NCBI GenBank assembly: GCA_016181935.1
Contig: JACOYI010000003.1
Span: 35,741-99,740, forward strand
Direction: 5' to 3'
Source: Candidatus Niyogibacteria bacterium
GTDB lineage: Bacteria; Patescibacteriota; Minisyncoccia; HO2-45-28
DNA: 64,000 bases
In this document: piece by piece, positions 1 to 49,787 of the stretch
Position numbering within the stretch: position 1 is the first letter of the stretch
Layout: the number at the start of each line of letters is the position of its first letter
The notes under the pieces: model-generated
The model's database searches: none
Seen by the model: the letters and a program-made list of their open reading frames with translations, nothing else
What the model was told of the DNA's origin: nothing
Translations under genes and position numbers: made by a program

Positions 1-1721
1 TAAGCGAAACAATAAAATTCATTGAGGTTTTTACGACGCGGCCCGATACGCTTTTTGGCGCGACGTACATTGCGATATCGCCGGAGCTTGCGAAATCATG
101 GCTCGATAGCGGATGGCAGGCGCCGGCCGACGTCGGCGCATTCATCGGGGAGTGCCTGAAAGCGCGCGAAGTTCCCCAGACGGACGAGGAACCCTCCTTC
201 GCTGAAGCTACGGCGGGCAAGGAGAAAACCGGCATTTTCACCGGCGTCTACGCCCTCAATCCCGCGAACCAAGAAAAAATTCCGGTCTGGGTCGCGAATT
301 ACGTGCTCGCGGGGTATGGCACCGGCGCCATCATGGCGGTGCCGGCGCACGACCGGCGTGATTTCGAATTCGCGAAAAAATACGGCCTGCCGATAAAAAT
401 CGTCATCTGTCCGCATTATCCCGAAAAAACCTGTCCGATGCTGGATGCGGCCTATGAAGGCGAGGGACATCTGGTGGGGTCGGGCGAATTCGACGGGGTG
501 CCGTCCGAGGAAGCGAAACGAAAAATTGCGGAGAAGATCGGCGCGACAATCAAAGTGAATTATCACCTGCGCGATTGGCTCATCAGCCGCCAGCGCTATT
601 GGGGGCCGCCGATTCCAATGATTTTTTGCGGTCCGCCAGTTGGCGGATGCGGCTGGCAACCGGTGCCGGAAGAGGATCTGCCGGTGCTCTTGCCCGACGT
701 AAAGGATTTCCATCCCACGGGAACCGATCAATCGCCGCTCGCGACCGTCGAGTCATTCGTAAAGACGAAATGCCCGAAGTGCGGGGGTGAGGCGCGTAGA
801 GAAACCGATGTGTCCGATACGTTTTTGGATTCGGCGTGGTATTTTTTCCGGTATCCGGATGTCAAAAACAAAAAAGAACCCTTCGGCAAGCTCGGGGCAA
901 AAACATGGCTACCCGTGGATATGTACATCGGCGGCGCGGAGCACGCGGTTCTGCATCTTCTCTACACGCGATTTATTACGAAAGTGTTCCATGACTGGGG
1001 GCTTGTTGATTTTGACGAACCCTTCAAAAAATTCCGCGCGCACGGATTGCTTATCAAGGACGGCGCCAAAATGTCGAAGTCGAAGGGGAACGTCGTGAAT
1101 CCGGATGACTATATCAAAAAATATGGCGCCGATGTGTTCCGGATGTATCTCATGTTTTTGGGCCCCTTTGAACAAGGCGGCGATTTTCGGGATGAGGGAA
1201 TTGCGGGGATTGCGCGATTTTTGGAGCGGGTGAAAAAACTCGCCAAAAAAGAATGGGGTGCCTCGGCGGACGAAACGATACTGCACCGGTCGGTCAAAAA
1301 GATCTCGGATGACATCGAGGGGCTGCATTACAATACGGCGATCGCTCAACTGATGATGTTGCTTTCCGCGTTGGAAAAGATGGAATGCGATAGAGCTAGT
1401 GTCAAGGTGTTTTTAAAACTCCTTGCGCCTTTCGCGCCCTTCATCGCAGAAGGGTTATGGCATAAGCTCGGCGAAAAAGAAAGCGTCCATCGTGCAGAAT
1501 GGCCAACATACGATGAATCAAAAACGCGGAGCGCGACCGCGACCATTGTTGTTCAAATCAACGGCAAGGTTCGCGACCGGTTTGAAGCAGAGACCGGAAC
1601 AGGGGACGTGGAATTAAAAGCGAAAGCGCTTGAACTTCCCAAGATCAAAAAACTCATCGGCGGCAAAGCGCCGGCGAATATCATCGTCATCAAAGACCGT
1701 CTCGTGAATATCGTTTTGTGA
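1..1721 (+). CDS. leuS: leucyl-tRNA synthetase, C-terminal ~570 aa (5' end lies outside the window)
   Basis: Frame 3 is open from the window start. The upstream translation contains TTRPDTLFGATY and the ORF has AVPAHDRRDFEFAKKYGLPI and the KMSKSKGN motif, which are class Ia LeuRS hallmarks. Confidence 0.9.
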   Translation, partial: SETIKFIEVFTTRPDTLFGATYIAISPELAKSWLDSGWQAPADVGAFIGECLKAREVPQTDEEPSFAEATAGKEKTGIFTGVYALNPANQEKIPVWVANYVLAGYGTGAIMAVPAHDRRDFEFAKKYGLPIKIVICPHYPEKTCPMLDAAYEGEGHLVGSGEFDGVPSEEAKRKIAEKIGATIKVNYHLRDWLISRQRYWGPPIPMIFCGPPVGGCGWQPVPEEDLPVLLPDVKDFHPTGTDQSPLATVESFVKTKCPKCGGEARRETDVSDTFLDSAWYFFRYPDVKNKKEPFGKLGAKTWLPVDMYIGGAEHAVLHLLYTRFITKVFHDWGLVDFDEPFKKFRAHGLLIKDGAKMSKSKGNVVNPDDYIKKYGADVFRMYLMFLGPFEQGGDFRDEGIAGIARFLERVKKLAKKEWGASADETILHRSVKKISDDIEGLHYNTAIAQLMMLLSALEKMECDRASVKVFLKLLAPFAPFIAEGLWHKLGEKESVHRAEWPTYDESKTRSATATIVVQINGKVRDRFEAETGTGDVELKAKALELPKIKKLIGGKAPANIIVIKDRLVNIVL

Positions 1722-7568: not shown

Positions 7569-8240
7569 TTACCGCGATTTGATCTCCCAGTCAAGATGCA
7601 TCCGTGGAAGCATCATGCGGGGATTCCATAGTTTTTTGAGTTTTGAGAGTTCGTCCGAAATCTGATATTTGCCGTCCCGCGAATAATCCGTGCCCGAGAT
7701 CGGCTCCACTTCGTAAAAAACCATTTGCGCGATGCGGCGGCCGACGACAAGCGGGATCGTGAAATGCTGGGAATTGTTCGTCACTTCCATGGTCCAGCGG
7801 TTGAAATAGCCGACGTCGCCCCAGCCCGCATCTTTGCAGACCTCGATGAAATTGCGGCCGAGAGATGAACGCGCGTACATTTTACACACGGCATTGTACC
7901 GCCCGCCAATGAATTCCTGCGTATGCGCGAGAATGGTTTCGCCTGGGCGCAAAAGGATGATTTTATCGGCCGGCTTGATATTTGCGAAATTCAAATTCAG
8001 GCGCTTGGCGGTAATGCCGACTTTATCGGCGCGAAACGGCCCGCCCCAGATACGGTTGGTGGATGCTTCATCGTAGATATTGTGGATCGTATGCGCGCCT
8101 TCGGGATGGTGTTCGCGCCAGAACCAGTCTCCCAACGAAACATCGTAGCTCGTGGTTTTGAGTTTCTTGGGGTCAAAGGGATCAATGATGATGGTCCCTT
8201 TTTTCTTGTGTCTTAATATCGCATCACGCGAAAGAAGCAT
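7569..8240 (-). CDS. dcd: dCTP deaminase
   Basis: MLLSRDAILRHKKKGTIIIDPFDPKKLKTTSYDVSLG is a Dcd/dUTPase-fold N-terminus. The upstream 43 codons of the ORF-track version were judged spurious. Confidence 0.85.
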   Translation of the reverse strand: MLLSRDAILRHKKKGTIIIDPFDPKKLKTTSYDVSLGDWFWREHHPEGAHTIHNIYDEASTNRIWGGPFRADKVGITAKRLNLNFANIKPADKIILLRPGETILAHTQEFIGGRYNAVCKMYARSSLGRNFIEVCKDAGWGDVGYFNRWTMEVTNNSQHFTIPLVVGRRIAQMVFYEVEPISGTDYSRDGKYQISDELSKLKKLWNPRMMLPRMHLDWEIKSR

Positions 8241-21904: not shown

Positions 21905-21914
21905 CTTTGCCGTG

Positions 21915-21986
21915 TGGGTGTGCTAGGATTCGAACCTAGAACCACGAAGGTATAAGCTTCGCGCTCTACCATTGAGCTACACACCC
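21915..21986 (-). tRNA. tRNA-Ile(UAU), hand-folded with anticodon UAU
   Basis: Acceptor GGGTGTG/CACACCC, D-arm GCTC-AATGGTA-GAGC, anticodon stem CGAAG/CTTCG with loop CTTATAC, T-loop TTCGAAT, discriminator A. Confidence 0.7.
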
Positions 21987-34170: not shown

Positions 34171-34309
34171 AACTGGCGGTGTATTTTAAAAATAGCTCGA
34201 ACGGAATTCGCTCCTCGCCGCGCACACTGATAATTTCAAGTTTTTCTTTGGCGGAATAAATTCAGAATTCGCGAAGCGAATACCAAATGTATTTTATGAA
34301 AAATTTCAA

Positions 34310-34364: not shown

Positions 34365-35030
34365 TTAGTTGAACGACACCAGAGGATTGAGAGTGAAGTA
34401 CTCCTCGCGCCCGTGGACGCCAGACGACACGATCCGCAAGAACTGCCGATTGAAGTCTTGCTGCACCGGCAAGCTCTCGTGAGGAGTCAGGATGCCGATC
34501 TCGTGGACTTCGCCGGCTTTCAGGAAGCTCGCGCGATCGAATGGATAGTCCGCCGCAGCGTGGCCGATGTCGCCGTCGAGCGACGTGTCCTCGTGTTCGG
34601 CGTCCCACACAGCGCAACTGTCGTCGAGGTTGTTGGCGAGCAGGATCCTGACATCACGGTCGAGGGTGACGCGGTGTCTTGGCTTCGGCTTCGGTTTTGG
34701 GCGTGGGCCTAGGCTAGGACGTGGTACGCCCCATCCTCCTCCACCTCCCCAACAGTAGATTTGACCCGGAACTCTTCCCACTTCTGTGTGCAATGCGCGG
34801 CCATATTTTGCCCGCTGTCCGCGGTGAGGAGTCCCTGCGACGGCGACAGATTCATCGATCGTCAGGAAGCCAATGTCGCCTTTTTTCAGAAACACCAAAT
34901 CCACGATGTCCCTGTAAGGCGCATAGATGTCGGGAATCGACGCCGAATCGCCTTGGATGTAAGGCATCATCAGGCACCGAATACCCGAGAATTGAGGGAA
35001 CTCCACTGTCCGTCCTGTGTGTGTGTTCAT
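34365..35030 (-). CDS. hypothetical two-domain protein with GGGGGWG...PKPKPKP linker
   Basis: AAAGGAGG RBS. Own promoter with an operator palindrome upstream and its own terminator. Confidence 0.55.
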   Translation of the reverse strand: MNTHTGRTVEFPQFSGIRCLMMPYIQGDSASIPDIYAPYRDIVDLVFLKKGDIGFLTIDESVAVAGTPHRGQRAKYGRALHTEVGRVPGQIYCWGGGGGWGVPRPSLGPRPKPKPKPRHRVTLDRDVRILLANNLDDSCAVWDAEHEDTSLDGDIGHAAADYPFDRASFLKAGEVHEIGILTPHESLPVQQDFNRQFLRIVSSGVHGREEYFTLNPLVSFN

Positions 35031-35142: not shown

Positions 35143-35306
35143 GAGAAAAATCTTATGAAAAAATTTCTTTTGCCCTTACAAAATATGGTTCGAGTCGATT
35201 TGTTTTCAGGTTCTTTGGCAGTTTGGAGTGTGCGCGGCGGAGCCGCTCATTTTTGCCCCGCCACACCCGAGCCGCGCTTTGCGCGGCGAGGAGCGAATTC
35301 CTTTCT

Positions 35307-35375
35307 GGCGGAGGCGGTAGGATTCGAACCTACGAAGCCCTTGCGGACTTAGCAGTTTTCAAGACTGCCCCCATT
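35307..35375 (-). pseudogene. tRNA-Ser(UGA) 3' two-thirds copy (anticodon arm to 3' end, ~85% identical) lacking the 5' acceptor strand
   Basis: GCAGTCTTGAAAACTGC...GTAGGTTCGAATCCTACCGCCTCCGCCA has no upstream GGAGGCG partner. Confidence 0.7.
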
Positions 35376-35382
35376 CTTTCGC

Positions 35383-35418
35383 TTTTACGCGAAAGCCGGG
35401 GTTGCTTTTTATTTTATC
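35383..35418. repeat. left copy of a 38-nt inverted repeat (AATAAAAAGCAACCCCGGCTTTCGCGTARAAGCGAAAG)
   Basis: Its reverse complement recurs at 45505 to 45542 with one mismatch. It contains the internal hairpin CTTTCGC/GCGAAAG. Confidence 0.8.
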
Positions 35419-35425
35419 GACGCGG

Positions 35426-35512
35426 CGGAGGCGGTAGGATTCGAACCTACGAGGCCATTGCTGACCTAACGGTTTTCAAGACCGTCCCATTCAACCGCTC
35501 TGGCACGCCTCC
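35426..35512 (-). tRNA. tRNA-Ser(UGA)
   Basis: Acceptor GGAGGCG/CGCCTCC, anticodon stem ACGGT/ACCGT with loop CTTGAAA, long variable arm, T-loop TTCGAAT, discriminator G. Confidence 0.85.
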
Positions 35513-35543
35513 GCCTCGCCGACAAATCAATGTAAAGCAACCC

Positions 35544-35589
35544 GTCGAATCTGAAGCAGTTCAGATTCGACCCACTCTGGCACGCCTCC
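35544..35589 (-). other. tRNA-Ser 5' fragment (GGAGGCGTGCCAGAGTGGG) fused to a perfect 12-bp hairpin GTCGAATCTGAA/TTCAGATTCGAC
   Basis: Seen on the minus strand upstream of the complete tRNA-Ser(UGA). Confidence 0.5.
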
Positions 35590-35592
35590 GTA

Positions 35593-35838
35593 TCATTTGA
35601 TCAGATTTTCGAGATTAGGCAGGGCTTTGAGGCCGCTCCCGTAAATCGTGTAGAGCGTACCAAGATACGGCTGGATTTGCAAATAACCAAAAACGGTAAG
35701 GCCGATGATGGCGGTCCATTTGACGGCGACGACGACCCGCTGCCAGACAAACACGCGGTGCATTTTTTGCACGAGCTCGAGCGTTTTGCGGGTCGCTTCG
35801 AGGTTTTTTTCAAGAAGAAGTTTGAGCTCGGGGTCCAT
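35593..35838 (-). CDS. small membrane protein (81 aa), hypothetical
   Basis: One TM segment WTAIIGLTVFGYLQI. GC content similar to the core genome. Confidence 0.4.
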   Translation of the reverse strand: MDPELKLLLEKNLEATRKTLELVQKMHRVFVWQRVVVAVKWTAIIGLTVFGYLQIQPYLGTLYTIYGSGLKALPNLENLIK

Positions 35839-35890
35839 GGATCCAGTATAATTGAAAAACCGGCAAAAATAGAGTACAATAAAGCGGGCT

Positions 35891-35935
35891 TGGAGAGGTG
35901 GCTGAGTGGGTTTAATGTGCTCATAAGCACATTAA
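35891..35935 (+). other. tRNA-Ser 5' fragment (GGAGAGGTGGCTGAGTGGG) followed by the perfect palindrome TTTAATGTGCT-CAT-AAGCACATTAAA
   Basis: Canonical tRNA-Ser 5' end without the remainder of the tRNA. Confidence 0.5.
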
Positions 35936-35964
35936 ACGGGCGCTCAAAGCATTGAACCCATAGC

Positions 35965-36051
35965 GGAGGCGTGGCTGAGCGGTTGAAAGCGGCGCCGTGC
36001 TAAGGCGTTAAGGGGGAAACTCCTTCAGAGGTTCGAATCCTCTCGCCTCCG
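35965..36051 (+). tRNA. tRNA-Ser(GCU)
   Basis: Acceptor GGAGGCG/CGCCTCC, anticodon stem GCGCC/GGCGT (one G-U pair) with loop GTGCTAA, long variable arm, T-loop TTCGAAT. Flanked by the processing-stem-like inverted repeat CCCATAGC/GCTATGGG. Confidence 0.85.
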
Positions 36052-37893
36052 CTATGGGTTTTTAATACGCGCCCTGGGTTTTCGCCAAGATGCCGCCGAT
36101 GCTCGCAATGCGAGCTTTGGCGGGACAAGCCGTGCTAAGGCGTTAAGGGGGAAACTCCAGAGGTTCGAATCCTCTCGCCTCCGCAATCTTGGAATGTCTG
36201 CCTCGAAAGGCAGGCATTTCCGTTTATTCACGCGATATTTTTTAGGTTCGATTGCTATTGTGGTTGAAGGAAAACGATTTGCGATCATCGAATAAAAATC
36301 GAGCGGTTTTTTCAAGGAAATACTCAACTTTTCGTCTTTTAGGGTTAGGTTCGATTCAGAAAGCGACATAAAGACCGCCCGCTTCTGTTCCGGCGCGCCA
36401 TTTTCAAACCACATCCGTGCTGCAACGGCAAAATTGAAGGAGTTCTCCGCCCAATCGATCCATTCCTCAATCTTGCGACCGGTGTCTTGTTGGGCTTCTT
36501 CGAGTTGCTTCTTTTGAGCCAAAAGGGTTTTGCGTTGCGGCTCGTATTCCTCGAGCGTTAGGAGTTCGCCGCTGGCGTTTTTCGGCGATGTATAGAGTTG
36601 CGTCAAATTCTGTAATTCGGCAACAACGTCTTTATAGCGCTTCTGTTGGGAGTCGATGACCGCGTTTTGGTTTTTAACGGTCTCAACATTGTCTTTCGAT
36701 AGTTCCTCAAGCGCCCACTGGCTGAACTCTTGGGAAAGTTTGAATCCTTTGATCTCATTGTCAATGAGTTTCTCCAAAACTTCGGCGCGCATGAATTTCT
36801 GGGTGCACTTCTTATTCTTCTGCTTGGTGCAATGGTAATAAACGTAGTGGAGGATTGTCGGCTTTTTCATTTCTTCAATCCTCGTTTTGCATTGGGGACA
36901 AGCATCTTTGCTCTTGTAAGCAAATTTATATTTACACTTCGTGCAAATGAGTTGATGTTTTTCTTCTGCGGTTACCATCCCGCCGCACTCGCCGCATTCA
37001 ATCTTCCCCGTGTAGGAAAAATGGTGGTTGGTGTGCGATCTTGGCTTTCCTTTCCTGCCGAGCTTCACTTGGATACGGTCAAAGTCATCCTCGGTAATCA
37101 TGGGTGTATGCGCGCCTTTGACGAGATCGCGCTCACCTGTTTCTTCGTTCTTTACTCCAAAGTAGCCGTAGTAAAACGGCTCGGTGAGAATTTTATAAAT
37201 TGCGGAGATGGGAAGATGCCGACCGCCCTGCCGTTTTGTTTGCCGTGTTTTTAAACCCCATTTTACTATTTCTTTTTGAATCCTGCGTACTGAATATTCT
37301 TCGCTCAAGAAAAGTTGGAAGAGACGCTGCACGAGAGGGAAACGTTCGGGGTCAGAGATAATATTTCGTTCACCCTTTGGTTTATCAAGATTGTTGAGAT
37401 ATCCGATGGGTGCGATGCCGTTCCTCCATCCCTGAAGGACTTTTGTCCGGTGTCCACGTTTTACGCTTGCGATCATGTCATCGGAATACTTTTTTGCCAT
37501 GCCGAATTCTATTTGCAGGATGAACTTATCATCAGACGAATTGTAATAAGTTTTGAAAGGCGTGCGCACTTCATCAATGTGTCCTTCGTCCATCAAGGTG
37601 ATTACCCAGCCACCGTCTAAGGCGTTGCGGGCAATGCGGTTCGGCTGCCAGACAAGGAAGGCATTTATTTTGCCCTCCTCCATCATGCTCATGAGTTGAG
37701 CAAACACCGGCCTTCCCCGTTTGTGGGCGGATTTTTCCTCTCGGTAAGTGCCGAGGACTCTGAGGTTGTGTTTCTTTGCGTACTCCTTTAGTTCGCGCTC
37801 CTGCGAATCAATCGAAAGCACCTGCTTATCCTTGTCCTCGGTGGACTTCCGGCAGTAGATGACGTATTTAAGTTTCTCGTTTTGGGTTGTCAT
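36052..37893 (-). CDS. large serine recombinase (phage integrase/transposase type)
   Basis: N-terminal resolvase catalytic domain YCRKSTEDKDKQVLSIDSQ, recombinase domain, Cys4 zinc ribbon (CGECGG...CTKC...CPQC) and coiled coil. The C-terminal ~45 codons read through the tRNA-Ser fragment, so the exact stop is uncertain. Confidence 0.85.
   Translation of the reverse strand: MTTQNEKLKYVIYCRKSTEDKDKQVLSIDSQERELKEYAKKHNLRVLGTYREEKSAHKRGRPVFAQLMSMMEEGKINAFLVWQPNRIARNALDGGWVITLMDEGHIDEVRTPFKTYYNSSDDKFILQIEFGMAKKYSDDMIASVKRGHRTKVLQGWRNGIAPIGYLNNLDKPKGERNIISDPERFPLVQRLFQLFLSEEYSVRRIQKEIVKWGLKTRQTKRQGGRHLPISAIYKILTEPFYYGYFGVKNEETGERDLVKGAHTPMITEDDFDRIQVKLGRKGKPRSHTNHHFSYTGKIECGECGGMVTAEEKHQLICTKCKYKFAYKSKDACPQCKTRIEEMKKPTILHYVYYHCTKQKNKKCTQKFMRAEVLEKLIDNEIKGFKLSQEFSQWALEELSKDNVETVKNQNAVIDSQQKRYKDVVAELQNLTQLYTSPKNASGELLTLEEYEPQRKTLLAQKKQLEEAQQDTGRKIEEWIDWAENSFNFAVAARMWFENGAPEQKRAVFMSLSESNLTLKDEKLSISLKKPLDFYSMIANRFPSTTIAIEPKKYRVNKRKCLPFEADIPRLRRREDSNLWSFPLNALARLVPPKLALRASAASWRKPRARIKNP
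36130..36184 (+). pseudogene. tRNA-Ser(GCU) 3' partial copy (anticodon loop to 3' end, near-identical apart from a 3-nt deletion)
   Basis: CCGTGCTAAGGCGTTAAGGGGGAAACTCC-AGAGGTTCGAATCCTCTCGCCTCCGC lies about 78 bp downstream of the complete tRNA and inside the 3' end of the recombinase ORF. Confidence 0.75.
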
Positions 37894-37926
37894 TTTGTGT
37901 ACACCAACATTATGGCCGAACTTTGG

Positions 37927-38253
37927 CTAAAGCCAAGGGCGGAGTGGATTTTCTCCATCTCGCGGATATTCCCAGTTAAGTTCGCGGATTTTCTCATAAA
38001 ACTCCCGTACTGCTTCAACGACCCCCGCTCGCCATTTAAGGAGATCAGCCGATAAGTCGGATTTCCTTTTCTCCTCGGCCGTGAGCTTTGCGCATGCTCG
38101 CCACAGAAGCTTGGTAGTATAGCTCCGGTTTAAATGGAGCCCTTGCCGGTCAATCTCCCTCCATAAGTACCGCGCGCTCATATTCGGGTTTTGTGAGAAA
38201 ATCGCGTATACCTTCTCGAGGTGTAACTCTTGCTGTTCTTTTGAATATTTCAT
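37927..38253 (-). CDS. hypothetical protein (108 aa), island gene
   Basis: AT-rich codon usage typical of the island. Lies between the recombinase and the replication-like gene. Confidence 0.45.
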   Translation of the reverse strand: MKYSKEQQELHLEKVYAIFSQNPNMSARYLWREIDRQGLHLNRSYTTKLLWRACAKLTAEEKRKSDLSADLLKWRAGVVEAVREFYEKIRELNWEYPRDGENPLRPWL

Positions 38254-38324
38254 GGATTATTATTTAATGGTTCGGTCTGCTCTACTGGTACGTTTTGTCC
38301 ACCTTTGTGGCCTACGATGGATTA

Positions 38325-38921
38325 TCATTCCATTCCGTACTGGCGTTTTGACCTTCTTTCCTCCCACGCGGCTTCCTCCTGTGCTTCAGTCCTCATCCTA
38401 TCAGGCAACACCTTTCGCCTTATGAGCTCTTTTTTCATTTCTTCTAAAAGTTTTATCCTATCCTTCTTTTGTGAATCCTTCTCTTGTGCATCCTTCGTGG
38501 CTCCACCGGAACCCGCACGAAGTTCTACAGGAGCCAACATCATAGGTCTGACGGTTCTCTCATCCCGTCTTTTTAATGGCTCTGTGGGAGCCAGCAAACC
38601 CTTACTTTTCCATTCTGATTTATCAAGAAGCCAGTAGGTATTGCTCATGCGTCCGCCGAGGCGCTGTTTCCGGATAATATTCCAAGCCAGAAGTTCTTTA
38701 AGGCCACGCTTAACCGACTTTGTAGAAATGTGATGCTGTTCCGCAATCCGCCTGATAGACGGGAACGCTTTTTGCGCTTTGTCGGCGTGCCGACAAAGGG
38801 AAAGGTAGGCGCACGTTGCATACGGACTCATTAACCTCGCGTAGCCGTTCAAATATGAATCATCAATGATGAACTGCTCTTTTTTGCGCAGATCTCTGAC
38901 TTTGAAATAACCATCGTTCAT
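38325..38921 (-). CDS. helix-turn-helix replication-organizer-like protein (DnaD/phage replisome organizer N-terminal-like)
   Basis: FIIDDSYLNGYARLMSPYATCAYLSLCRHADKAQKAFPSIRRIAEQHHISTKSVKRGLKELLAWNII is a wHTH of the replication-initiator type. Start MNDGYFKV with AGGAAAAG RBS. Charged C-terminal tail. Confidence 0.55.
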   Translation of the reverse strand: MNDGYFKVRDLRKKEQFIIDDSYLNGYARLMSPYATCAYLSLCRHADKAQKAFPSIRRIAEQHHISTKSVKRGLKELLAWNIIRKQRLGGRMSNTYWLLDKSEWKSKGLLAPTEPLKRRDERTVRPMMLAPVELRAGSGGATKDAQEKDSQKKDRIKLLEEMKKELIRRKVLPDRMRTEAQEEAAWEERRSKRQYGME

Positions 38922-39109
38922 AACTTTTCCTGCTCTTTGAGAAGCTGGTTGTACCGATCCAGCCATTCTTTCGGCATTGGCTGATAAACAACTCGGGCAA
39001 GGTTCAAAAGTCGTTGCGCCTGTTCAGCCGCCTCATCGTGCGAAATCTCAATGCCAAACTCCTTTTGGTAAATCGCTCGGTATTTTTCAATGGCTTGCTC
39101 GGAAAGCAT
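38918..39109 (-). CDS. small hypothetical protein (63 aa)
   Basis: Overlaps the downstream gene start by 4 nt. No clear RBS. Confidence 0.3.
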   Translation of the reverse strand: MLSEQAIEKYRAIYQKEFGIEISHDEAAEQAQRLLNLARVVYQPMPKEWLDRYNQLLKEQEKL

Positions 39110-39155
39110 GGAATTGGTGAACGGCCTTCATCGCGGCTGGAACTCGCGACACGGC

Positions 39156-39410
39156 CTAATTTTGTGCGTACAGGCGCGTCTTTATGGCTCGGAGTTCGTC
39201 AAAATATGCCTGCGGTTCGACCTTTAACTCTTTCCGCCAGAATGCCGCGACAAGCTCGTCAAGCTCCTCGCTATGCGGAAAAACAAAATAAGCCCGACGA
39301 TAATCGGTCTTGTCTATGGCCTCAAGAGGCACAAAAAGAGAAAGCGCGGCTGCAAGCGCGAGATCCGCCGTTCGATAAAAATCTTTGGATTGTAGTTTTT
39401 GCATAGTCAT
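39156..39410 (-). CDS. small hypothetical protein (84 aa)
   Basis: Island codon usage. The ATG is preceded by an AT-rich leader. Confidence 0.4.
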   Translation of the reverse strand: MTMQKLQSKDFYRTADLALAAALSLFVPLEAIDKTDYRRAYFVFPHSEELDELVAAFWRKELKVEPQAYFDELRAIKTRLYAQN

Positions 39411-39434
39411 TGTAATTGCTTATTATTTTTTCTT

Positions 39435-39475
39435 GCTTTCAGTAAAACAAAACCTCTCGGCGCGAAATGCCGAGA
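39435..39475 (-). terminator. terminator CTCTCGGC-GCGAAAT-GCCGAGAG plus U-run (minus strand)
   Basis: Perfect 8-bp stem followed by GTTTTGTTTTACTG on the minus strand, after the 39583 ORF stop. Confidence 0.55.
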
Positions 39476-39582
39476 GTACGAGGGAGGAGATTTTTCTTTT
39501 TAGAGAATGGTTTTAGGCAACAAAAAAGAAGGTTTTTGACAAACCCTCTCAACCGGTCAAGCCGGCAAGAAAAATGTACTCT

Positions 39583-40410
39583 CTAACCCTCTAACTCAAG
39601 CCAGAATGTTCTTTTTTGGGCGTCAGTACGGTATCGGATTTTTCCTTGAAGTTTTTCATTCTTTTGCAATTCTTTTTTTGTAAATTCAATAAGCTCCACC
39701 ATACGAGTATGGCGCTGTGGGCTGTAATCAATCAACCGGCTATCACCCTTATCTTTTGGCAGGCGGATCGCTTCAAATACGGCATCTATATTTTTCTGAA
39801 CCCCGAAATGCGGCTCGCAGAGGGTTTGCAAAAGTTTGAAATGCCGCGACCTGCTTGATCCAACGAGAATCTTTTCCCTTTGTTTATAAAATTTAAAGTA
39901 TCCCTTGCCCCCTTCGATAAGCGTGTATGGTTTCGCTGGTTCATCAACCGACACTTTTTTATCAGTTGGTTGGAGCTTAGTTTCCGTGGGAGCGGTTGCA
40001 CCTTTTGGTTTTGCCTTTATGATCTCCCACGCCCTATACACGATCTTGTCATTGTAGCTATGGGGGAACGCCCAATGCTGGATAACGTTATGAAATTCTT
40101 TGGCATCAAGCCCCAGTTTCAAGCCGTTTTCAAAAAGTTTATATGTCTCATCAAATTTCTCTCCAAGAGTTAGATGGAACAGGACTGGCTTGCCATCGCG
40201 CCCCAGAGGAACATCGGGCACTGCTTCATAGGTAACCGCATGATACCCCCGCAGCATTCTTAAGAGTTTACGCTGTGTTGCGAGATCCGGCGTATTCTCG
40301 CCGGTTTCCGAAAGCGTGAATTCTCCATTTTCTGGCGTCAAAAGACGATCCTTTTTAATTGCCTGCAACATCCACCAAATATTTTGAATAAAAAAATCGT
40401 GTGGGGTCAT
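39583..40410 (-). CDS. hypothetical protein (~275 aa), island gene
   Basis: Start MTPHDFFIQ.... Upstream TGTAAT-TGTAAT direct repeat. No recognisable motifs. Confidence 0.5.
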   Translation of the reverse strand: MTPHDFFIQNIWWMLQAIKKDRLLTPENGEFTLSETGENTPDLATQRKLLRMLRGYHAVTYEAVPDVPLGRDGKPVLFHLTLGEKFDETYKLFENGLKLGLDAKEFHNVIQHWAFPHSYNDKIVYRAWEIIKAKPKGATAPTETKLQPTDKKVSVDEPAKPYTLIEGGKGYFKFYKQREKILVGSSRSRHFKLLQTLCEPHFGVQKNIDAVFEAIRLPKDKGDSRLIDYSPQRHTRMVELIEFTKKELQKNEKLQGKIRYRTDAQKRTFWLELEG

Positions 40411-40554
40411 TGTAATTGTAATGTTTAATTTTAATGCCCCCGATTTGCCTCGTTCCTCTAAAAGTTGCACAAAATCCGATAAATGTAAACGTCGCGCTTT
40501 AGTTTTTACGAGTCGATCCTATACAAGATTTACCAAAAATGATAGCGTGATTTT

Positions 40555-41256
40555 ATGAATATAAACACGCTAGTCAAGAAGTTGCACATAATCAAAGATA
40601 AGGGTTTCATAAAAACTCACCGTGCTCACGATACTGGGATTGGTAAAACTCTGGAAGATTTGCTGGAAATAAAAGAAAATAATTTGCAACTCCCTGATGT
40701 CGGAAAGATTGAATTGAAGGCAAAAAGGATCGACTCGGGGAGCATGCTCACTGTTGCCACTAAATCACCCTTACCAAAAGGCGTGAATAGGATTTTATTT
40801 GAGAAGTATAAATATAGGGATAAAGAAGGAAAATATAATCTTCACTCTACCGTGTGCGGTTCGCGAACCAACAGACAAGGACTTAGGGTTGTTTTGAAAA
40901 ACGATAAGTTAATTTTGAAAAATACCTACAACGTTGAGGCATATTGGCCTCTTTCTATTTTCGATGATGTTTTAAAGAGCAAATCAAATAAGATATTGCT
41001 CATTTTTGCTGAAACAAAAGGCGAGAGAAAAACTCCAAGCGAAAAATTTCACTACAGCGAGGCCTATTTACTTTCGGGGCTTAATAGTAAAAAGTTCAAA
41101 TCTGCCATAGAAAAAGATAAACTAAAGGTTGATATTCGAATTGGGGTATATCGAAGCGGCAAATTCAAAGGACGCTATCACGATCATGGCACTGGATTTC
41201 GAATCAATAAAAAAGACTTCCTCCAACTTTTTGATCATTACAAAAAGCTCATTTAG
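40555..41256 (+). CDS. type II restriction endonuclease, MutH/MvaI/BcnI-like PD-(D/E)xK family
   Basis: LPDVGKIELKAKR is a PD...ELK catalytic motif as in MutH. LLIFAETKGERKTPSEKFHYSEAYLL and YHDHGTGFRI resemble conserved MvaI/BcnI blocks. Convergent with and overlapping the methyltransferase by 8 nt. Confidence 0.65.
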   Translation: MNINTLVKKLHIIKDKGFIKTHRAHDTGIGKTLEDLLEIKENNLQLPDVGKIELKAKRIDSGSMLTVATKSPLPKGVNRILFEKYKYRDKEGKYNLHSTVCGSRTNRQGLRVVLKNDKLILKNTYNVEAYWPLSIFDDVLKSKSNKILLIFAETKGERKTPSEKFHYSEAYLLSGLNSKKFKSAIEKDKLKVDIRIGVYRSGKFKGRYHDHGTGFRINKKDFLQLFDHYKKLI

Positions 41257-43114
41257 TTTTTCTCAGAACAACGATACTTTCTCTTGTCATCGTTTCTTCT
41301 AGCTCGCCGGCGATATTGGTGGGGGAATTTTTAATTGGCATTCTTTTGCCTGGTATATTGCGTACCACAATATTCTCACAATTGAACCCGATTTGCTCTG
41401 CGAGTTCGGCAATAATAAAATCGGTCGGTAGTCTTACTTGCTTAACTAAACGATTTCCGATAACGAGACAAAAATACTTATTTGGTTTTAATATCTGATG
41501 GGCTTTTTTAAGGCAATCATTTAGTCCGATATAAAAACTCAAAACATCTTTTGCTCTCTTGGGGTCTCGTTCGTCGATCTTTTTTAGAGAATCTTTGAGA
41601 TAATCTGACGCCAATGAATTTCTTAACTCAATGACAGGCTTACCGCCTAGCAACTTGTTGTCAACTCCGGAAGCTTCATTTGGATCATCAAACATATCAA
41701 TCCACTGTGAAGAAAGCCGTGAAAACTGACCGTAGGCGACAGTCGTTCTACTGTCTCCATAGGGTGGGGAGGTGATAATAAAATCAATGGATTCGTCTTT
41801 TATGCCGTTATCTTTTGAAGAATCTCCGTATATAATTTTTGCCCATGTGTTTCTATCAACGTCACGGTAATAACTCTCCATGCCTTTCATGTTGAGCTCC
41901 GTTCTTTTTTTAAATGTGGCTAAAACATCGGGGCTGTGATTTTCAAGATTTTCTTTTTTAATTCTCACAAGCTTAAATTCTCCGCTCTTTGTATTTGACA
42001 CTTTCCTGACAGTTTCACTAAAAGCAACCATGAAGAAATTTCGGATATTTTTACTGGAGATTTCCTGTATAGCTTTTTTTATTTTTGCCAACTCGATGAC
42101 TACTTTTTCTTTAAACCAAAATTCAACGTTATTAAATACCGGCTTCTTAATCTGATTGTTTTTAATCTCGCCGATTTTTTTTAGGAGTTTTAAATACTCC
42201 TTATTGAGAATCGCGGGGTCAATAGGGGTTGTTTTTGTTTTTGCAAGAAAGATGGCAAGTGGGTTTAAATCAATACCATGCGCATTTCGGCCTAACAGAC
42301 GACTCTCAATCAAGGCCGTGCCGGAGCCACAAAAGATGTCGCAAACCGTATCTCCCTTTTTGCTGTAAGTTAGTAAAAGTCGCCTTGCAACGTGAGGGAT
42401 AAACATTGCGGGGTATGTGTGAAAACCGTGAGTGTATGGTTTGGTATTAACTCTTTCAAAATCCCATGAGTAGTCGATCTGTCTTTGAAGTTTATGATCA
42501 GATACTTTTTCTTTCTCGGTTGGCTTTTCGAGATTTCTAATAATTCTTACAACAACACCGCGAACCTCTAACTCTTTTGTGTAAATTGGGAATAGAGTTG
42601 GATTTGCTGGTTGCAATCTGAAACGATCCTTTTCTCGATAAATCCGTTTTAGCGTTGCCTCGTTGTCATTAATAATCGCAACTACAGTTTGTCCGTTATC
42701 AGCGATGTTCTGCTGCCGAATGACAACAATATCTCCGTCATAGATTCCATCGTCTATCATGCTATTTCCTTGCACTCGTAGGGCATAATGATTGCCGAAC
42801 TTTCCAATGTCGTCTTTCGCAACTGTGATTGTTTCTGGAATTTCTATGGCCTCGATGGGCGTGCCGGCGGCAATCGTACCCAAAAGAGGAATTTTAATCG
42901 TTCTGCTGTTTTTTTCTGCCGACATCGCGCGCGGCTGGTTAACCTCGCGCTGTAAATATCCGGCTTCTTGCAGTCTCTTAACATGAAAATGCGCCGTAGA
43001 AACCGAAGCAAGTTTAAAGCGCCTCCGAATCTCCTCTAAGGATGGGGCGTACCTTTTCTTTGCGCTATATTGTTTTATGAATTCCAAAACTTCCTTTGGA
43101 CGCTTTGTTAACAT
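41249..43114 (-). CDS. LexA-like repressor (wHTH plus S24 autopeptidase) fused in-frame to an amino-DNA methyltransferase (motif I FCGSGT, motif IV SPPY)
   Basis: N-terminal ~205 aa: LTKRPKEVLEFI, HLKAL-like helix, IPLLGTIAAGTPIEA (Ala-Gly cleavage site), LRVQGNSMIDDGIYDGDIVV (Ser nucleophile), GQTVVAIINDNEATLKRIY (Lys), VVVRIIRN. The following ~420 aa carry HGFHTYPAMF...DIFCGSGTALIESRLLGRNAHGIDLNP and IDFIITSPPYG. The reading frame is continuous over 621 aa. Confidence 0.85.
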   Translation of the reverse strand: MLTKRPKEVLEFIKQYSAKKRYAPSLEEIRRRFKLASVSTAHFHVKRLQEAGYLQREVNQPRAMSAEKNSRTIKIPLLGTIAAGTPIEAIEIPETITVAKDDIGKFGNHYALRVQGNSMIDDGIYDGDIVVIRQQNIADNGQTVVAIINDNEATLKRIYREKDRFRLQPANPTLFPIYTKELEVRGVVVRIIRNLEKPTEKEKVSDHKLQRQIDYSWDFERVNTKPYTHGFHTYPAMFIPHVARRLLLTYSKKGDTVCDIFCGSGTALIESRLLGRNAHGIDLNPLAIFLAKTKTTPIDPAILNKEYLKLLKKIGEIKNNQIKKPVFNNVEFWFKEKVVIELAKIKKAIQEISSKNIRNFFMVAFSETVRKVSNTKSGEFKLVRIKKENLENHSPDVLATFKKRTELNMKGMESYYRDVDRNTWAKIIYGDSSKDNGIKDESIDFIITSPPYGDSRTTVAYGQFSRLSSQWIDMFDDPNEASGVDNKLLGGKPVIELRNSLASDYLKDSLKKIDERDPKRAKDVLSFYIGLNDCLKKAHQILKPNKYFCLVIGNRLVKQVRLPTDFIIAELAEQIGFNCENIVVRNIPGKRMPIKNSPTNIAGELEETMTRESIVVLRKTK

Positions 43115-43252
43115 GGCTGTGTATTGCTTTTTATCCCGCACTTAAAGTATAATAGAAAATAAATAGAAAGTCGAAAGTCGGGTTATCCCCAGCTTCATGT
43201 GATAAGTTCGATGGGGGTTGAAATATCCTAAAAATGTGATAAAAAATAAGAA

Positions 43253-44035
43253 ATGTTTGCAACCCAAGAAGAACAAAACAAATACATCAAAGAAACCTAT
43301 CCTGAAATCACTGATAATCGTATTGACGAAGCGCATTGGGATCTTCACTGTTCAAGATGTGAAATAACGCGAGGGTTTTTTGTTACCGAAATGGGCTTTG
43401 CCCACCAACAAACCCGTTATAGCGGCGTCTCTTTGAATCAACCACATGGATTCACATTCCATTGCCCAGTGTGCAAGTTGTATAAGCTCTGGATTGTTTT
43501 TGAGATTTCAGGCAACGAAACAAAAGAAGATGGCAGTCAGGGGTGGGTCAAGAGGTGTTACAAAGTGACATCTCTACCAAGCGAAGGATTAGAGGAGATA
43601 GAACAACTTCCAGAAAATCCCTCGTCTCTCCGCATTGCGTATAGGCAGGCAATACGGGCAATGGATGCGAATGCACACATCGCTGCTGCGGCTATGTTTC
43701 GGCGAGCGCTCCAAATCATCACGCGGGAGATTTTGAAAGCTAAACATGGATCTCTGGCAGATGAGCTAGATTCGCTTGTGGGCACAGAGTTCAACGGAGT
43801 AAAACTTACAAACAACTTCGCTACGAATGGTTACATCATTAGGGAATCAGGGAATCAAGGAGCGCACCCCGACAAAGACCCCGACTTATTGGATTTCACT
43901 CAGCAAGATGCGGAGGATCTACAGGGGATTTTCATGGAGCTTGTCAGTGAGCTTTTTATCGCGCCCGAAGCAATGAAAAAAGCTAAGCAGGAGTTTGTGC
44001 AAAGGAGGAAGATTGCGCCACCAAAAATAGTCTAA
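43253..44035 (+). CDS. zinc-ribbon N-terminal domain plus C-terminal DUF4145 domain protein
   Basis: HCSRC...HCPVC Cys pairs. C-terminus AMFRRALQIITREIL...IRESGNQGAHPD matches DUF4145 (R..LE...IR..GN..AH). Confidence 0.6.
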   Translation: MFATQEEQNKYIKETYPEITDNRIDEAHWDLHCSRCEITRGFFVTEMGFAHQQTRYSGVSLNQPHGFTFHCPVCKLYKLWIVFEISGNETKEDGSQGWVKRCYKVTSLPSEGLEEIEQLPENPSSLRIAYRQAIRAMDANAHIAAAAMFRRALQIITREILKAKHGSLADELDSLVGTEFNGVKLTNNFATNGYIIRESGNQGAHPDKDPDLLDFTQQDAEDLQGIFMELVSELFIAPEAMKKAKQEFVQRRKIAPPKIV

Positions 44036-44050
44036 GATAAAAACTTTTCT

Positions 44051-44599
44051 ATGGATATAAACGAGAAAATCGCCCCTATCTATTCAGAGCTACAAGGATA
44101 CCTTGCACAAGCGCCAGAAAAAGATAAAGAAATCTTCGTTGAAGCTGTTTGGGAACGATACAATCAAACCGTTGAGGAGCTCAATAATGTTTCTGGAAAA
44201 AACTATGATGGTTACCGTGTTCAACCAAGAAGATGGGCGAATACCACGAATCCATGTGTAGCTACTCTTGATTATCGCACCAAGCTCGGAGGAATCATTG
44301 CGCGATTACATCGAGAGTATTTTTCGGATGAAGCAGCGCCTTTCAGCGGAATGCCGAATACCGTAATCAATCAAAGTCAACACCAATACCAATCCATTCA
44401 GATGCTTCTCGAAATACAAGATAAAATCAGTGAGAAGTTTTATCAAGCAACTGAAGGTAGTAAAGAAAAAACTTTTTTGGAAAAAGTGAAAAGTTCTCTG
44501 TCCTCTGTTCGGAATGCTACGGAACTACTCTCGTTGATTATGAAAACAGCAAAAGACATAGGACTGTCGGTCGATGAACTTATAAAACTTTTTATGTAA
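44051..44599 (+). CDS. hypothetical protein (182 aa), co-operonic with the DUF4145 gene
   Basis: 16-nt gap from the upstream gene. Island codon usage. Confidence 0.5.
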   Translation: MDINEKIAPIYSELQGYLAQAPEKDKEIFVEAVWERYNQTVEELNNVSGKNYDGYRVQPRRWANTTNPCVATLDYRTKLGGIIARLHREYFSDEAAPFSGMPNTVINQSQHQYQSIQMLLEIQDKISEKFYQATEGSKEKTFLEKVKSSLSSVRNATELLSLIMKTAKDIGLSVDELIKLFM

Positions 44600-44601
44600 A
44601 T

Positions 44602-44781
44602 ATGGGAAAAGAAACATACAAGCTCAAAGTATTTTGTGTTAACTGCAATTTTAAGGGCGAGATCGAGATTCCGAAGGGGGTTGCTTACAAAAGCCAAGAG
44701 TGTCCGAACTGCGGAGTTACGGGATTGGAACGCGTGCTTGAGCCCGCAAGATTGATTCCTGATATTCCCAACTATTTTTAG
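44602..44781 (+). CDS. small zinc-ribbon protein (59 aa), below the ORF-track length cutoff
   Basis: MGKETYKLKVFCVNCNFKGEIEIPKGVAYKSQECPNCGV has CxxC-N19-CxxC. The start abuts the upstream stop. Confidence 0.4.
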   Translation: MGKETYKLKVFCVNCNFKGEIEIPKGVAYKSQECPNCGVTGLERVLEPARLIPDIPNYF

Positions 44782-44948
44782 TTGTGAGTTTGCCGTGACA
44801 AACAATTCAAAAGAACTACCGCAAAACTCATGAGTAATCTGGAAATGGTTGCCAGCTTCTGATACCCTGAAAGTAAGTTCTAATATCGTTCAAGATTTCC
44901 CGCAGGATTGAGCGCCCGTTCGAGAGACCGGGAATCCTCAAAAACAAA

Positions 44949-44975
44949 ACGCCCGCTAACAGCGGGCTACGAAGA
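44949..44975 (-). terminator. terminator hairpin GCCCGCT-AACA-GCGGGC with U-run on the minus strand
   Basis: The minus strand reads GCCCGCTGTTAGCGGGCGTTTTGTTTTTG at the 3' end of the 44967 ORF. Confidence 0.5.
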
Positions 44976-45320
44976 TGTTTTAGGGAGAGAACGAAGTTTA
45001 CGCATTGCAAAATAGTTCGTAATCGCTTTAAGAATTTCCGGCTCGTTTACAAATTTTCCGGAAGTTGTAAGATTTCTCATTGTTTCGTCAAGTTGAACCA
45101 AATCCAGTGCTGTAACAAATTGAACAAGCGACCCGACAACTCGCGGATTGTCGTTTGTCTCGATGATTTCGCCAATCGCTCTGATAAAGATAGTTCGATC
45201 CTCGCCGCCGCTTGAATCATAGAGTTCGAGGAGTGCGCCCGACCCACCCCAATCTGCATAATCGTAATCAGAGATTCCGGCAAAACATGCCAAAATTTCT
45301 GCTTGCCAATTCTTTTCCAT
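44967..45320 (-). CDS. hypothetical protein (117 aa), acidic, possible immunity/accessory protein
   Basis: Clean ORF in the island. Confidence 0.45.
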   Translation of the reverse strand: MEKNWQAEILACFAGISDYDYADWGGSGALLELYDSSGGEDRTIFIRAIGEIIETNDNPRVVGSLVQFVTALDLVQLDETMRNLTTSGKFVNEPEILKAITNYFAMRKLRSLPKTSS

Positions 45321-45445
45321 TATTTCTCCTTCTATAATTTTGTTAAGGTTCTACGTTTAAGGTTACTATCTTTTAAAACAAAAGGCGAGTTTTTAACCCC
45401 GACCGACCCCCATCAAATCATTCTCTAGAAAAGAGCGCGAAAAAG

Positions 45446-45473
45446 CCTTATGATTCTCATATTGGGTAGTTCT
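45446..45473 (+). other. highly degenerate tRNA-Ser 3'-end-like remnant (GTAGTTCTAGACTGGCTCACTCCGC)
   Basis: About 65% identical to GTAGGTTCGAATCCTACCGCCTCCGCC. It has the same spacing to the 38-nt repeat as the complete tRNA-Ser(UGA) on the left side. Confidence 0.3.
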
Positions 45474-45504
45474 AGACTGGCTCACTCCGCTTTAAGCGTA
45501 AATA

Positions 45505-45542
45505 AAAAGCAACCCCGGCTTTCGCGTAGAAGCGAAAGCGGC
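45505..45542. repeat. right copy of the 38-nt inverted repeat
   Basis: AATAAAAAGCAACCCCGGCTTTCGCGTAGAAGCGAAAG is the reverse complement of 35383 to 35418 with one mismatch. Confidence 0.8.
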
Positions 45543-45787
45543 GGCTTGCGTCTTTTTGATGCCTCCGCGATAATGGGATGACCGTGCGGGAACGGGGATC
45601 GCTTAATGATTAATCGTAGTTATAAAACATAATATGGCATTTGAAGAACCCAAGACAGGGCAGGAAGAGATGGATGAGGACAAAAGTTTTTTTAGGCAAG
45701 TAGCAGAACAGAAAGAAGAAGATGCGCGTGAGGCGCAAAAAGCGGCGGAAGCGGAAAAAGGAGACAAAAAAGCCGCGTAAAAGCAGA

Positions 45788-48887: not shown

Positions 48888-49787
48888 TCACTTCGGCTGT
48901 GGCTTCAGCATCTCGGGGCTCAGGATGAACTGCTGGCTCGATGGCACCAGCATCACGCTGACGTTCGGCGCCAGCTTGCTCGCGAAGATGTACTGAACGA
49001 GTTGCGGCGAGAGCGACTCGGCGAGCTTTTTGTTGGCCTCGGCCTGTTTGGAGGCGGTGATCAGGATCGCTTCTCCGGCGCCGCGGGCCGTTTCGATCGC
49101 CTGATCGGCCTTGGCTTTTTCACTCGCGACCTTTTCCCGCTCTGCAAGCGCGAGCTGGCTCTGCCTCTGCTTTTCCTCGATCGCGTTCTGGAACTCCGCG
49201 CTGAAGGAGATGTTGTCGATCAGTAGATCTTGAACGGCGATCGAGTGGATCATGAGCTCGGTCGTCAGGCGTTCGCGAACCTCCTTGCGGATGGCTTCGC
49301 GATTCGGTGCGATCTGGACACTCGAATACCGGACGGTCGCATCCTTGAACGCCTGCAGGACGCGCGGGCGCACGAGGACGTCAAAGTACTCCGGGCCCAC
49401 TTCGCGGTACAGTTCCTGGATGTTCTCGGGCGAGACCTGAATGTTGATGGTGGCGGCCACGAACACGTCCTGCGTTTCGAGACTGAAAGAATCCAGCTTG
49501 TCGAACTTGTGGCCCTGCACCTGAATCGAAGCCCTGGTGATGCTTCTCCATGGCGCGACCCATTGCAGGCCGTCGCTGGTCTGGTTCACGATGGCGCCGA
49601 ATGAATAGACGATGCCCACGTGGCCGGCCGGAACTTGGTAGGCCGAGTTCCAGCCGGTCCACAGAAGGGCCGTGACCGCGGCGACCCACAACGCGATGCT
49701 CCGCGGAAACGGCGCGCGCGTTCCGGCGGTAGTGGCGTAAAGCACGCCGCCCACCATGACGAAAAGGACAGAGATGAGGTAGCCCAT
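48888..49787 (-). CDS. SPFH/band 7 domain protein (HflC/prohibitin-like)
   Basis: N-terminal TM segment, PAGHVGIVYSFG, coiled-coil C-terminus. Confidence 0.8.
   Translation of the reverse strand: MGYLISVLFVMVGGVLYATTAGTRAPFPRSIALWVAAVTALLWTGWNSAYQVPAGHVGIVYSFGAIVNQTSDGLQWVAPWRSITRASIQVQGHKFDKLDSFSLETQDVFVAATINIQVSPENIQELYREVGPEYFDVLVRPRVLQAFKDATVRYSSVQIAPNREAIRKEVRERLTTELMIHSIAVQDLLIDNISFSAEFQNAIEEKQRQSQLALAEREKVASEKAKADQAIETARGAGEAILITASKQAEANKKLAESLSPQLVQYIFASKLAPNVSVMLVPSSQQFILSPEMLKPQPK

Follow-up and report, generated by a model that had tools for sequence, protein, structure and literature searches.

The 64-kb window analysed here (64,000 nucleotides, nt, of contig JACOYI010000003.1, positions 35,741 to 99,740) belongs to a metagenome-assembled genome (MAG) of Candidatus Niyogibacteria and contains, next to two divergently transcribed tRNA-Ser genes, an integrated island that encodes a large serine recombinase, as well as two mutually inverted copies of a 38-nt sequence, henceforth module T, located on the two sides of the island (Table 1). 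The flanks are of bacterial character (recG, prkA, spoVR, type IV pilus genes and ligA), with a GC content of 52-60% that drops to 38-47% from about 36 to 45.6 kb. The nearest recG homologues are found in Patescibacteria MAGs, the best one in Candidatus Niyogibacteria (locus L001, 80% identity). An earlier note on this DNA had drawn attention to the inverted repeat; overlooked at that time were the tRNA-Ser(GCU) gene (35965-36052), the partial tRNA copies (36129-36184 and 35306-35375) and the 5' tRNA fragment (35566-35589).

Table 1. Features of the two tRNA-Ser loci and the island, in window positions (aa, amino acids)
Feature	Position	Strand	Remarks
3' part of older tRNA-Ser(UGA), D-loop end to encoded CCA	35306..35375	-	88% identical to the complete gene
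Left arm of the repeat, module T	35376..35414	-	hairpin CTTTCGC-GTAAAA-GCGAAAG; AAATAAAAAGCAACCCCGG before the hairpin
Cassette, 190 nt: left hairpin, spacer, tRNA-Ser(UGA), GCGTCGATA, T	35376..35565	-	within the D-loop of the older tRNA-Ser(UGA)
Complete tRNA-Ser(UGA)	35424..35512	-	ARAGORN, Rfam; no encoded CCA; carried by the cassette
Left hairpin of the cassette, 12-bp palindrome GTCGAATCTGAA-CTGC-TTCAGATTCGAC	35544..35571	-	95% identical copy in L081 (4060-4098)
5' fragment of older tRNA-Ser(UGA), acceptor strand and D-arm, 24 nt	35566..35589	-	intact tRNA at this place in L081
Conserved host gene, 81 aa	35593..35838	-	between the two tRNA-Ser genes
Complete tRNA-Ser(GCU), ancestral position	35965..36052	+	ARAGORN
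Large serine recombinase gene	36052..37893	-	613 aa as integrated; 575 aa (...IPRLRSEPV*) on the predicted circle
Partial tRNA-Ser(GCU), anticodon stem to 3' end	36129..36184	+	attL target-side arm; last 6 nt are CTCCGC
Integrated island	36185..45490	.	9306 nt; 43% GC against 55% in the flanks; CTCCGC again at 45485-45490
Restriction enzyme, MvaI/BcnI-type	40555-41256	+	island cargo
Type II methyltransferase, N-terminal LexA helix-turn-helix and S24 peptidase domain	41249-43141	-	island cargo
Spacer TTTAAGCGT, crossover core to T	45491..45499	+	counterpart in L081: TTTGAGAGT
Right arm of the repeat, module T	45500..45538	+	9 nt past the right junction of the island
GAAAGCGGCG	45534..45543	+	identical to a D-arm/anticodon-stem segment of tRNA-Ser(GCU); overlaps the end of T

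The sequence AATAAAAAGCAACCCCGGCTTTCGCGTARAAGCGAAAG has exact matches at two places in the window, one per strand (35376-35413, minus; 45501-45538, plus), and had no match in 100 shuffles even when up to 3 mismatches were tolerated. A repeat finder widened the pair to 39 nt with 97% complementarity (38/39; 35376-35414 and 45500-45538), the sole difference between the arms being A/G in the hairpin loop. The repeat described in the earlier note is real, with one difference; its positions are to be corrected by 4-7 nt (from 35383-35418 and 45505-45542), and the left arm lies 9 nt, rather than 8 nt, after tRNA-Ser(UGA) (35424-35512). On its 3' side, this arm is joined to the 3' part of an old tRNA. 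The module folds into a hairpin of 7-8 base pairs (bp) that is extended by CCCCGG/GGGG or CGG pairing, with a folding energy of -17 to -27 kcal/mol (z -2.5 to -3.2). On the antisense strand, the extended stem is followed in both copies by a U-run (UUGCUUUUUAUUU), and in the right copy it is followed by a U-run (GUCUUUUUGAU) in the sense direction as well. With its strong hairpin and flanking A/T runs, T fits a two-way terminator and may terminate transcription; a search of Rfam in E-value mode returned no family at T.

The copies of T identified are the two in the window and one in a 9-kb contig from a related genome, L081 (3902-3941, the orthologue of the right copy); of the source MAG, the copy search covered the 64 kb of the window, with 71 kb of the same contig lying beyond it. 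A 30-mer of T had no match in JGI metagenomes or IMG/VR, and the five matches of a 20-mer are in unrelated coding-like contexts without the hairpin and are attributed to chance. The wide dispersal that the earlier note had contemplated is not what these searches returned and, given two copies in the window, one in L081 and no match of the 30-mer in JGI metagenomes or IMG/VR, a dispersed generic repeat resembling repetitive extragenic palindromic (REP) sequences or miniature inverted-repeat transposable elements (MITEs) was rejected. A (C)GTARAA loop on a perfect stem of at least 6 bp is found only 4 times in the 1.36 Mb that comprise the window and the fetched related loci: in the three copies of T and once in the related locus L082, where the hairpin forms the right end of a 66-nt insert in the T-loop of a tRNA-Ser(GCU). 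All four of these hairpins (4/4) abut a tRNA-Ser fragment on the 3' side.

The left copy of T lies within a nested arrangement of tRNA genes. On the minus strand, the stop codon of the 81-aa gene is followed by the 5' fragment of a tRNA-Ser(UGA), a palindrome, a spacer, the complete tRNA-Ser(UGA), GCGTCGATA, the 38-mer and the 3' part of the old tRNA. When joined, the 5' fragment and the 3' part give a flawless tRNA-Ser(UGA) cloverleaf; the stem changes that distinguish the 3' part from the complete tRNA-Ser(UGA) are paired, and the variable arm of the complete gene is unlike that of the older copy. In L081, L082-L085 and L091, an intact tRNA-Ser(UGA) occupies the position of the 5' fragment, and the palindrome and the 38-mer are missing there. 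Because the two halves rejoin and the relatives have an intact tRNA-Ser(UGA) without palindrome or T, the left T, by sequence comparison, closes a 190-nt insert by which the older tRNA was split and, as it appears, functionally replaced.

A parallel arrangement is present in L081 for the other isoacceptor: the D-loop of the orthologous tRNA-Ser(GCU) is interrupted by the palindrome (95% identical), then a complete tRNA-Ser(GCU) and finally the 38-mer, and the fragments rejoin into a perfect tRNA. The L081 segment 3900-4113 is 78% identical to 35374-35590 of the window, and within L081 the cassette-borne and the older GCU 3' parts agree without a mismatch along 59 nt. Two known types of insertion were considered for the cassette and rejected on reading the sequence: the positions of the junctions match neither the GTTRRRY cleavage of an integron-like attC/attI insertion nor the subterminal-hairpin geometry of IS200/IS605-like hairpin ends.

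The gene at the left end of the island encodes a large serine recombinase with Resolvase, Recombinase and zinc-ribbon domains (Pfam matches PF00239, 5e-18; PF07508, 3e-12; and PF13408, 4e-5, just under the cut-off) and a YCRKST motif at the N-terminus. As integrated, the open reading frame (ORF) crosses the partial tRNA in antisense, stops only at the 3' end of the complete tRNA-Ser(GCU) and reaches its full length because of this read-through, the last 40 residues coming from the tRNA copy and the DNA beyond; the shorter form predicted for the circle fits the 570-590 aa of the closest homologues. A protein search yielded more than 1700 homologues at E <= 1e-30. The genes of homologues with 92, 77 and 70% identity (L095, L096 and L098, respectively) have their antisense ends inside the 3' ends of tRNA genes (Trp, Ser-CGA and Trp), with the same element-side sequence (...GCCTGCCTTTYGAGGCAGACATTCCNAGNTTG) directly at the tRNA terminus. 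A fourth homologue, with 40% identity, in L081, has its antisense end in the 3' end of tRNA-Ser(UGA): the ORF ends ...RRR*, the stop codon is within the T-stem, and the element-side arm, which likewise starts directly at the tRNA end, has a different hairpin. The end points inside the target tRNAs vary among the homologues. Related recombinase genes at L081 4563-6218 (minus strand), L026 7094-8599 and 16570-17994, and L020 11431-12903 are convergent on tRNA-Ser(UGA), tRNA-Ser(GCU) and tmRNA. Given these tRNA and tmRNA neighbours of the related Patescibacteria recombinases, targeting of tRNA/tmRNA 3' ends seems to be a trait of the family. A search with blastn-short for the right-end arm of the island in other islands of the recombinase family gave nothing convincing.

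In the window, the complete tRNA-Ser(GCU) is followed by a trailer (Y, 36053-36093) and a hairpin segment (X, 36094-36128), and the element-side arm abuts the partial tRNA-Ser(GCU) copy at 36129-36184, not the complete gene; therefore, the element starts at 36185. The right border comes from the comparison with L081, the similarity of which to the right flank extends to position 45485 of the window; L081 3902-3956, which comprises a tRNA end, a spacer and the 38-mer, is 94.5% identical to 45538-45485. The two junctions have CTCCGC in common (36179-36184 and 45485-45490), in flanks that are otherwise unrelated, and this core together with the comparison of the flanks makes the crossover position secure. 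Reconstruction in silico gives an attB that joins ...GGTTCGAATCCTCTCGCCTCCGC to TTTAAGCGTAAATAAAAAGCAACC and an attP that joins ...TAGACTGGCTCACTCCGC to AATCTTGGAATGTCTGCC.

With these borders, the island extends from 36185 to 45490, and the repeat, whose left arm lies 770 nt further left, does not bracket it as had been thought. The earlier note had also placed an inverted remnant of a tRNA-Ser 3' end at 45446-45473. This segment aligns to either tRNA-Ser no better than shuffled sequences: for 45446-45473 and for the whole junction 45430-45492 against both tRNA-Ser genes, 460 to 1987 of 2000 shuffles score as high or higher. The only true tRNA match at the right junction is CTCCGC(T) at 45485-45491, which is in direct orientation to tRNA-Ser(GCU) and is no inverted copy of tRNA-Ser(UGA). 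Accordingly, of the proposal that divergent tRNA 3' ends with their trailers flank the island, the trailer unit is retained, its inversion being due to the two divergent tRNA-Ser loci, and the inverted tRNA 3' end on the right is dropped. The short tRNA-like segment that overlaps the end of the right T can be read as a putative remnant of a still older tRNA copy.

The L081 contig, which encodes an 81-aa protein 86% identical to that of the window, contains homologues of the right-flank genes, tRNA-Ser(GCU), the 81-aa gene and tRNA-Ser(UGA), in this order, and has no island at the GCU gene. In the tRNA sense, a complete tRNA-Ser(GCU) is followed by TTGAGAGT and the 38-mer with one extra C, the 38-mer starting 8 nt after the tRNA, and this succession of tRNA-Ser(GCU), TTTGAGAGT and T agrees with the reconstructed attB across the junction. 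Since T is located beside tRNA-Ser(GCU) in the island-free L081, the right arm is target-side DNA that is older than the island. The same gene order on the same strands is found in the more distant L006: pilM, the o49893 gene, tRNA-Ser(GCU), the 81-aa gene, tRNA-Ser(UGA), the o32925 gene, tRNA-Arg and recG. This collinearity indicates that the divergent tRNA-Ser pair is ancestral and that nothing between the arms has been inverted. Other relatives end short of the tRNA-Ser locus: the similarity of L001 to the window ends at about 34076, near the end of the L001 contig itself, and the loci of the o32925 homologues (L092 and L094) end before the tRNA-Ser locus. For the 891-aa, low-complexity, K/E-rich protein of the right flank, no relatives were found in the genome-contig search.

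In our assessment, it is probable that T is a shared trailer or terminator-like module of the two divergent tRNA-Ser loci and that the island was inserted between one tRNA copy and its T. Under this scenario, T would end a compact tRNA-Ser cassette, after the tRNA gene, and each of the divergent loci (UGA and GCU) would hold a T-bearing cassette or its remains; the copies of T are mutually inverted because the loci are divergently transcribed, an arrangement that is kept in related Parcubacteria. On the left, the 190-nt cassette would have entered the D-loop of the older tRNA-Ser(UGA) and taken over from it. On the right, T would at first have been the trailer of a tRNA-Ser(GCU) copy, until the 9.3-kb serine-recombinase element integrated at the 3' end of that copy, with the crossover within CTCCGC, and thereby displaced T by 9.3 kb from its own tRNA. 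The first half of T probably formed the right half of the recombinase target, and the presence of T in the target would account for the location of the island at the partial copy with T and not at the complete gene, which has a different trailer. The judgement in the earlier note that a simple tRNA-integration model fails does not hold once tRNA-Ser(GCU) is taken as the target and a large serine recombinase with a short core as the enzyme.

The earlier note had offered two other accounts of the repeat. That the 38-mers are terminal inverted repeats of a transposon-like element of about 10 kb (35376-45538) is suggested by the identity of the arms (38/39), their inverted orientation and their location roughly around the low-GC region. 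However, the low-GC DNA begins 770 nt inside the left arm, the interval contains two tRNA-Ser genes and the 81-aa gene in an order and orientation that are conserved in island-free relatives, and T is located beside tRNA-Ser(GCU) in L081 without any island. Neither the Pfam nor the PHROGs scan of the island ORFs yielded a transposase family, no direct repeat that could be a target-site duplication was found outside the arms of T, and the ends of the island are attL and attR that share only CTCCGC; a transposon is, then, very improbable. We give equally little credence to an old inversion between two att-like sites as the source of the inverted arms. Inverted repeats of this length can mediate inversion, and the UGA-side site, a tRNA 3' end with T, is similar to the reconstructed GCU-side target; nevertheless, all syntenic blocks beside and between the arms, from pilM to recG, have the order and orientation seen in L006 and L081, the divergent tRNA-Ser pair is ancestral in the group, and comparison of the segment between the repeats, as the earlier note had suggested, reveals in L081 the absence of the island and no inversion. 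An island integrated in a tRNA gene by a tyrosine integrase was rejected as well: the Pfam domain scan found no tyrosine integrase, and there is no tRNA-derived repeat of at least 15 nt at the right end.

Another possibility is that both tRNA-Ser genes inherited T vertically as their native terminator, the copies being homogenized by gene conversion, with no cassette involved and with the tRNA fragments being unrelated integration scars. The retention of T after tRNA-Ser(GCU) in L081 and its terminator-like fold are in line with this possibility, and the identity of the L081 GCU 3' parts over 59 nt fits local duplication or conversion. On the other side, tRNA-Ser(UGA) is followed by other trailers and no T in three relatives; the copies of T are 97% identical compared to about 71% for the preceding tRNAs; the left T is located between the halves of a split older tRNA that rejoin perfectly; and each of the T-type hairpins adjoins a tRNA fragment. 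Hence we consider a native terminator unlikely, if clearly less so than a transposon or an inversion.

Several observations weigh against the shared-trailer scenario that we favour. The empty GCU site is seen in just one close relative, on the short L081 contig, and what lies beyond the UGA locus is not represented in any relative. At the GCU locus, the modules are ordered differently in the window and in L081; no single recombination step leads from the L081 order to that of the window, at least 3 steps being needed. The 5' fragments of both genomes have an unusual D-loop in common (GAGTGGGTCGA), which leaves doubt about where precisely the cassette begins on the left. The cassette contains no enzyme gene, and no recombinase could be attributed to the insertion in the D-loop. 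The excised circle and its attP are in silico predictions. Compared with the intrinsic terminators that follow tRNA genes, T is alike in forming a stable GC-containing hairpin near a tRNA 3' end, with U-runs antisense in both copies and sense in the right one, and different in that a consensus terminator scan of the window did not list it and that a sense-direction U-run is missing from the left copy as a result of its fusion to the tRNA fragment.

A bolder version appears doubtful to us, albeit less so than a native terminator: T would be the right end of cassettes of about 190 nt that carry a tRNA-Ser gene and no recombinase and that successively replace the resident genes via the D-loop and leave nested 5' and 3' tRNA halves behind, the resulting junction between tRNA and T serving as the landing site of islands with serine recombinases directed at tRNA 3' ends. 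Such a cassette would be a small mobile unit the sole cargo of which is a tRNA gene, with the enzyme supplied from elsewhere.

Elements with large serine recombinases include the phiC31, Bxb1, A118 and TP901-1 prophages and, with the Ccr recombinases, SCCmec. The island resembles these elements in that an enzyme with Resolvase, Recombinase and zinc-ribbon domains is encoded at one end, attL and attR share a very short core (6 nt here), integration is precise, and an empty site is present in a relative. Among the serine integrases that have been studied well, protein-coding or intergenic sites predominate. The recombinase family of the island, in contrast, targets the extreme 3' ends of tRNA genes (Ser and Trp), and its ORF crosses the junction such that the predicted C-terminus depends on the integration state (575 aa versus 613 aa). 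In a survey of mycobacterial prophages, tRNA sites were found only among tyrosine integrases, and the serine integrase cores were short (PMC10654092). With tRNA islands of tyrosine integrases, the present island shares the tRNA neighbour, the skewed GC content, the restriction-modification defence cargo and the accumulation of partial tRNA copies at the locus; it differs in having no tyrosine integrase and in its flanking direct repeat, which measures 6 nt and is not a long copy of the tRNA 3' end. The base-exact junctions and the reconstructed attB and attP of a tRNA-targeting serine-recombinase island in uncultured Patescibacteria could be useful for recombinase mining. The locus also illustrates how an inverted repeat that seems to enclose an island, however conspicuous, can arise incidentally, namely as a shared trailer from which one gene was parted by an integrase.

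Split and fragmented tRNA genes are known as integration scars at tRNA hot spots in both bacteria and archaea. As in these scars, the 5' and 3' fragments around the inserted DNA of the cassette rejoin to a perfect tRNA. The cassette differs in its size of 190 nt, in the lack of a recombinase gene, in the complete replacement tRNA of the same isoacceptor, and in that it occupies the D-loop and not the region of the anticodon or T-loop, and the design is repeated with another isoacceptor in another genome. The nested tRNA cassettes, known from two genomes, are the only unusual aspect of the locus and, as they appear in the sequence, a modest curiosity; they hint at repeated replacement of tRNA genes in these small genomes and, should further genomes bear them out, would represent a mobile unit of a small but new kind.

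Related modules, each a tRNA-Ser 5' fragment with a perfect palindrome of 12-14 bp, are located upstream of functional tRNA-Ser genes at 35892-35964 of the window (plus strand), L081 4113-4185 (minus), L082 about 250-319 (minus) and L042 7386-7440 (plus); the palindromes differ from genome to genome and their position is kept. A match to a sigma-70-like promoter (35852-35880) lies just upstream of the module in the window. Hairpin-rich inserts are present in the T-loop of tRNA-Ser(GCU) copies in L082 (66 nt, about 90-250, minus strand) and L042 (about 95 nt, 7688-7810, plus strand), the former ending in a hairpin with a CGTAGAA loop, as in the 38-mer. The fragment-palindrome modules and the tRNAs split in the T-loop, found in the window, L081, L082/L083 and the distant L042, indicate that the tRNA-Ser loci of these bacteria are repeated integration targets.

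The island itself is of an ordinary kind: small and integrative, it encodes restriction-modification proteins and a large serine recombinase. Apart from the restriction enzyme and the methyltransferase, its products include an HTH_36 protein (similar to replication initiators), a DUF5659 protein and a DUF4145 protein; megablast against phage and plasmid collections gave no match for the island. The methyltransferase gene combines LexA DNA-binding and S24 self-cleaving peptidase domains in one 630-aa ORF beside the restriction enzyme gene, and this fusion could tie the level or activity of the methylase to RecA-stimulated cleavage.

Some further features of the flanks deserve mention. A second inverted repeat (34199-34224 and 35280-35305; 26 nt, 96% complementary) surrounds a 1055-nt segment, and its right arm begins directly past the encoded CCA with which the 3' part of the old tRNA-Ser(UGA) ends. 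Within the segment, on the minus strand, lies a 221-aa ORF (34365-35030) with a match to the phage family phrog_8970 (E 1.6e-19); the fetched relatives contain no homologue of it. On the right, a Band 7/SPFH gene (48888-49787, minus strand) is located between the gene for the 891-aa protein and the o49893 gene and is missing at the L081 counterpart. Finally, a conserved tRNA-Ile with the anticodon UAU lies close to recG in the window (21914-21986, minus strand), as it does in many of the Patescibacteria loci that were fetched.

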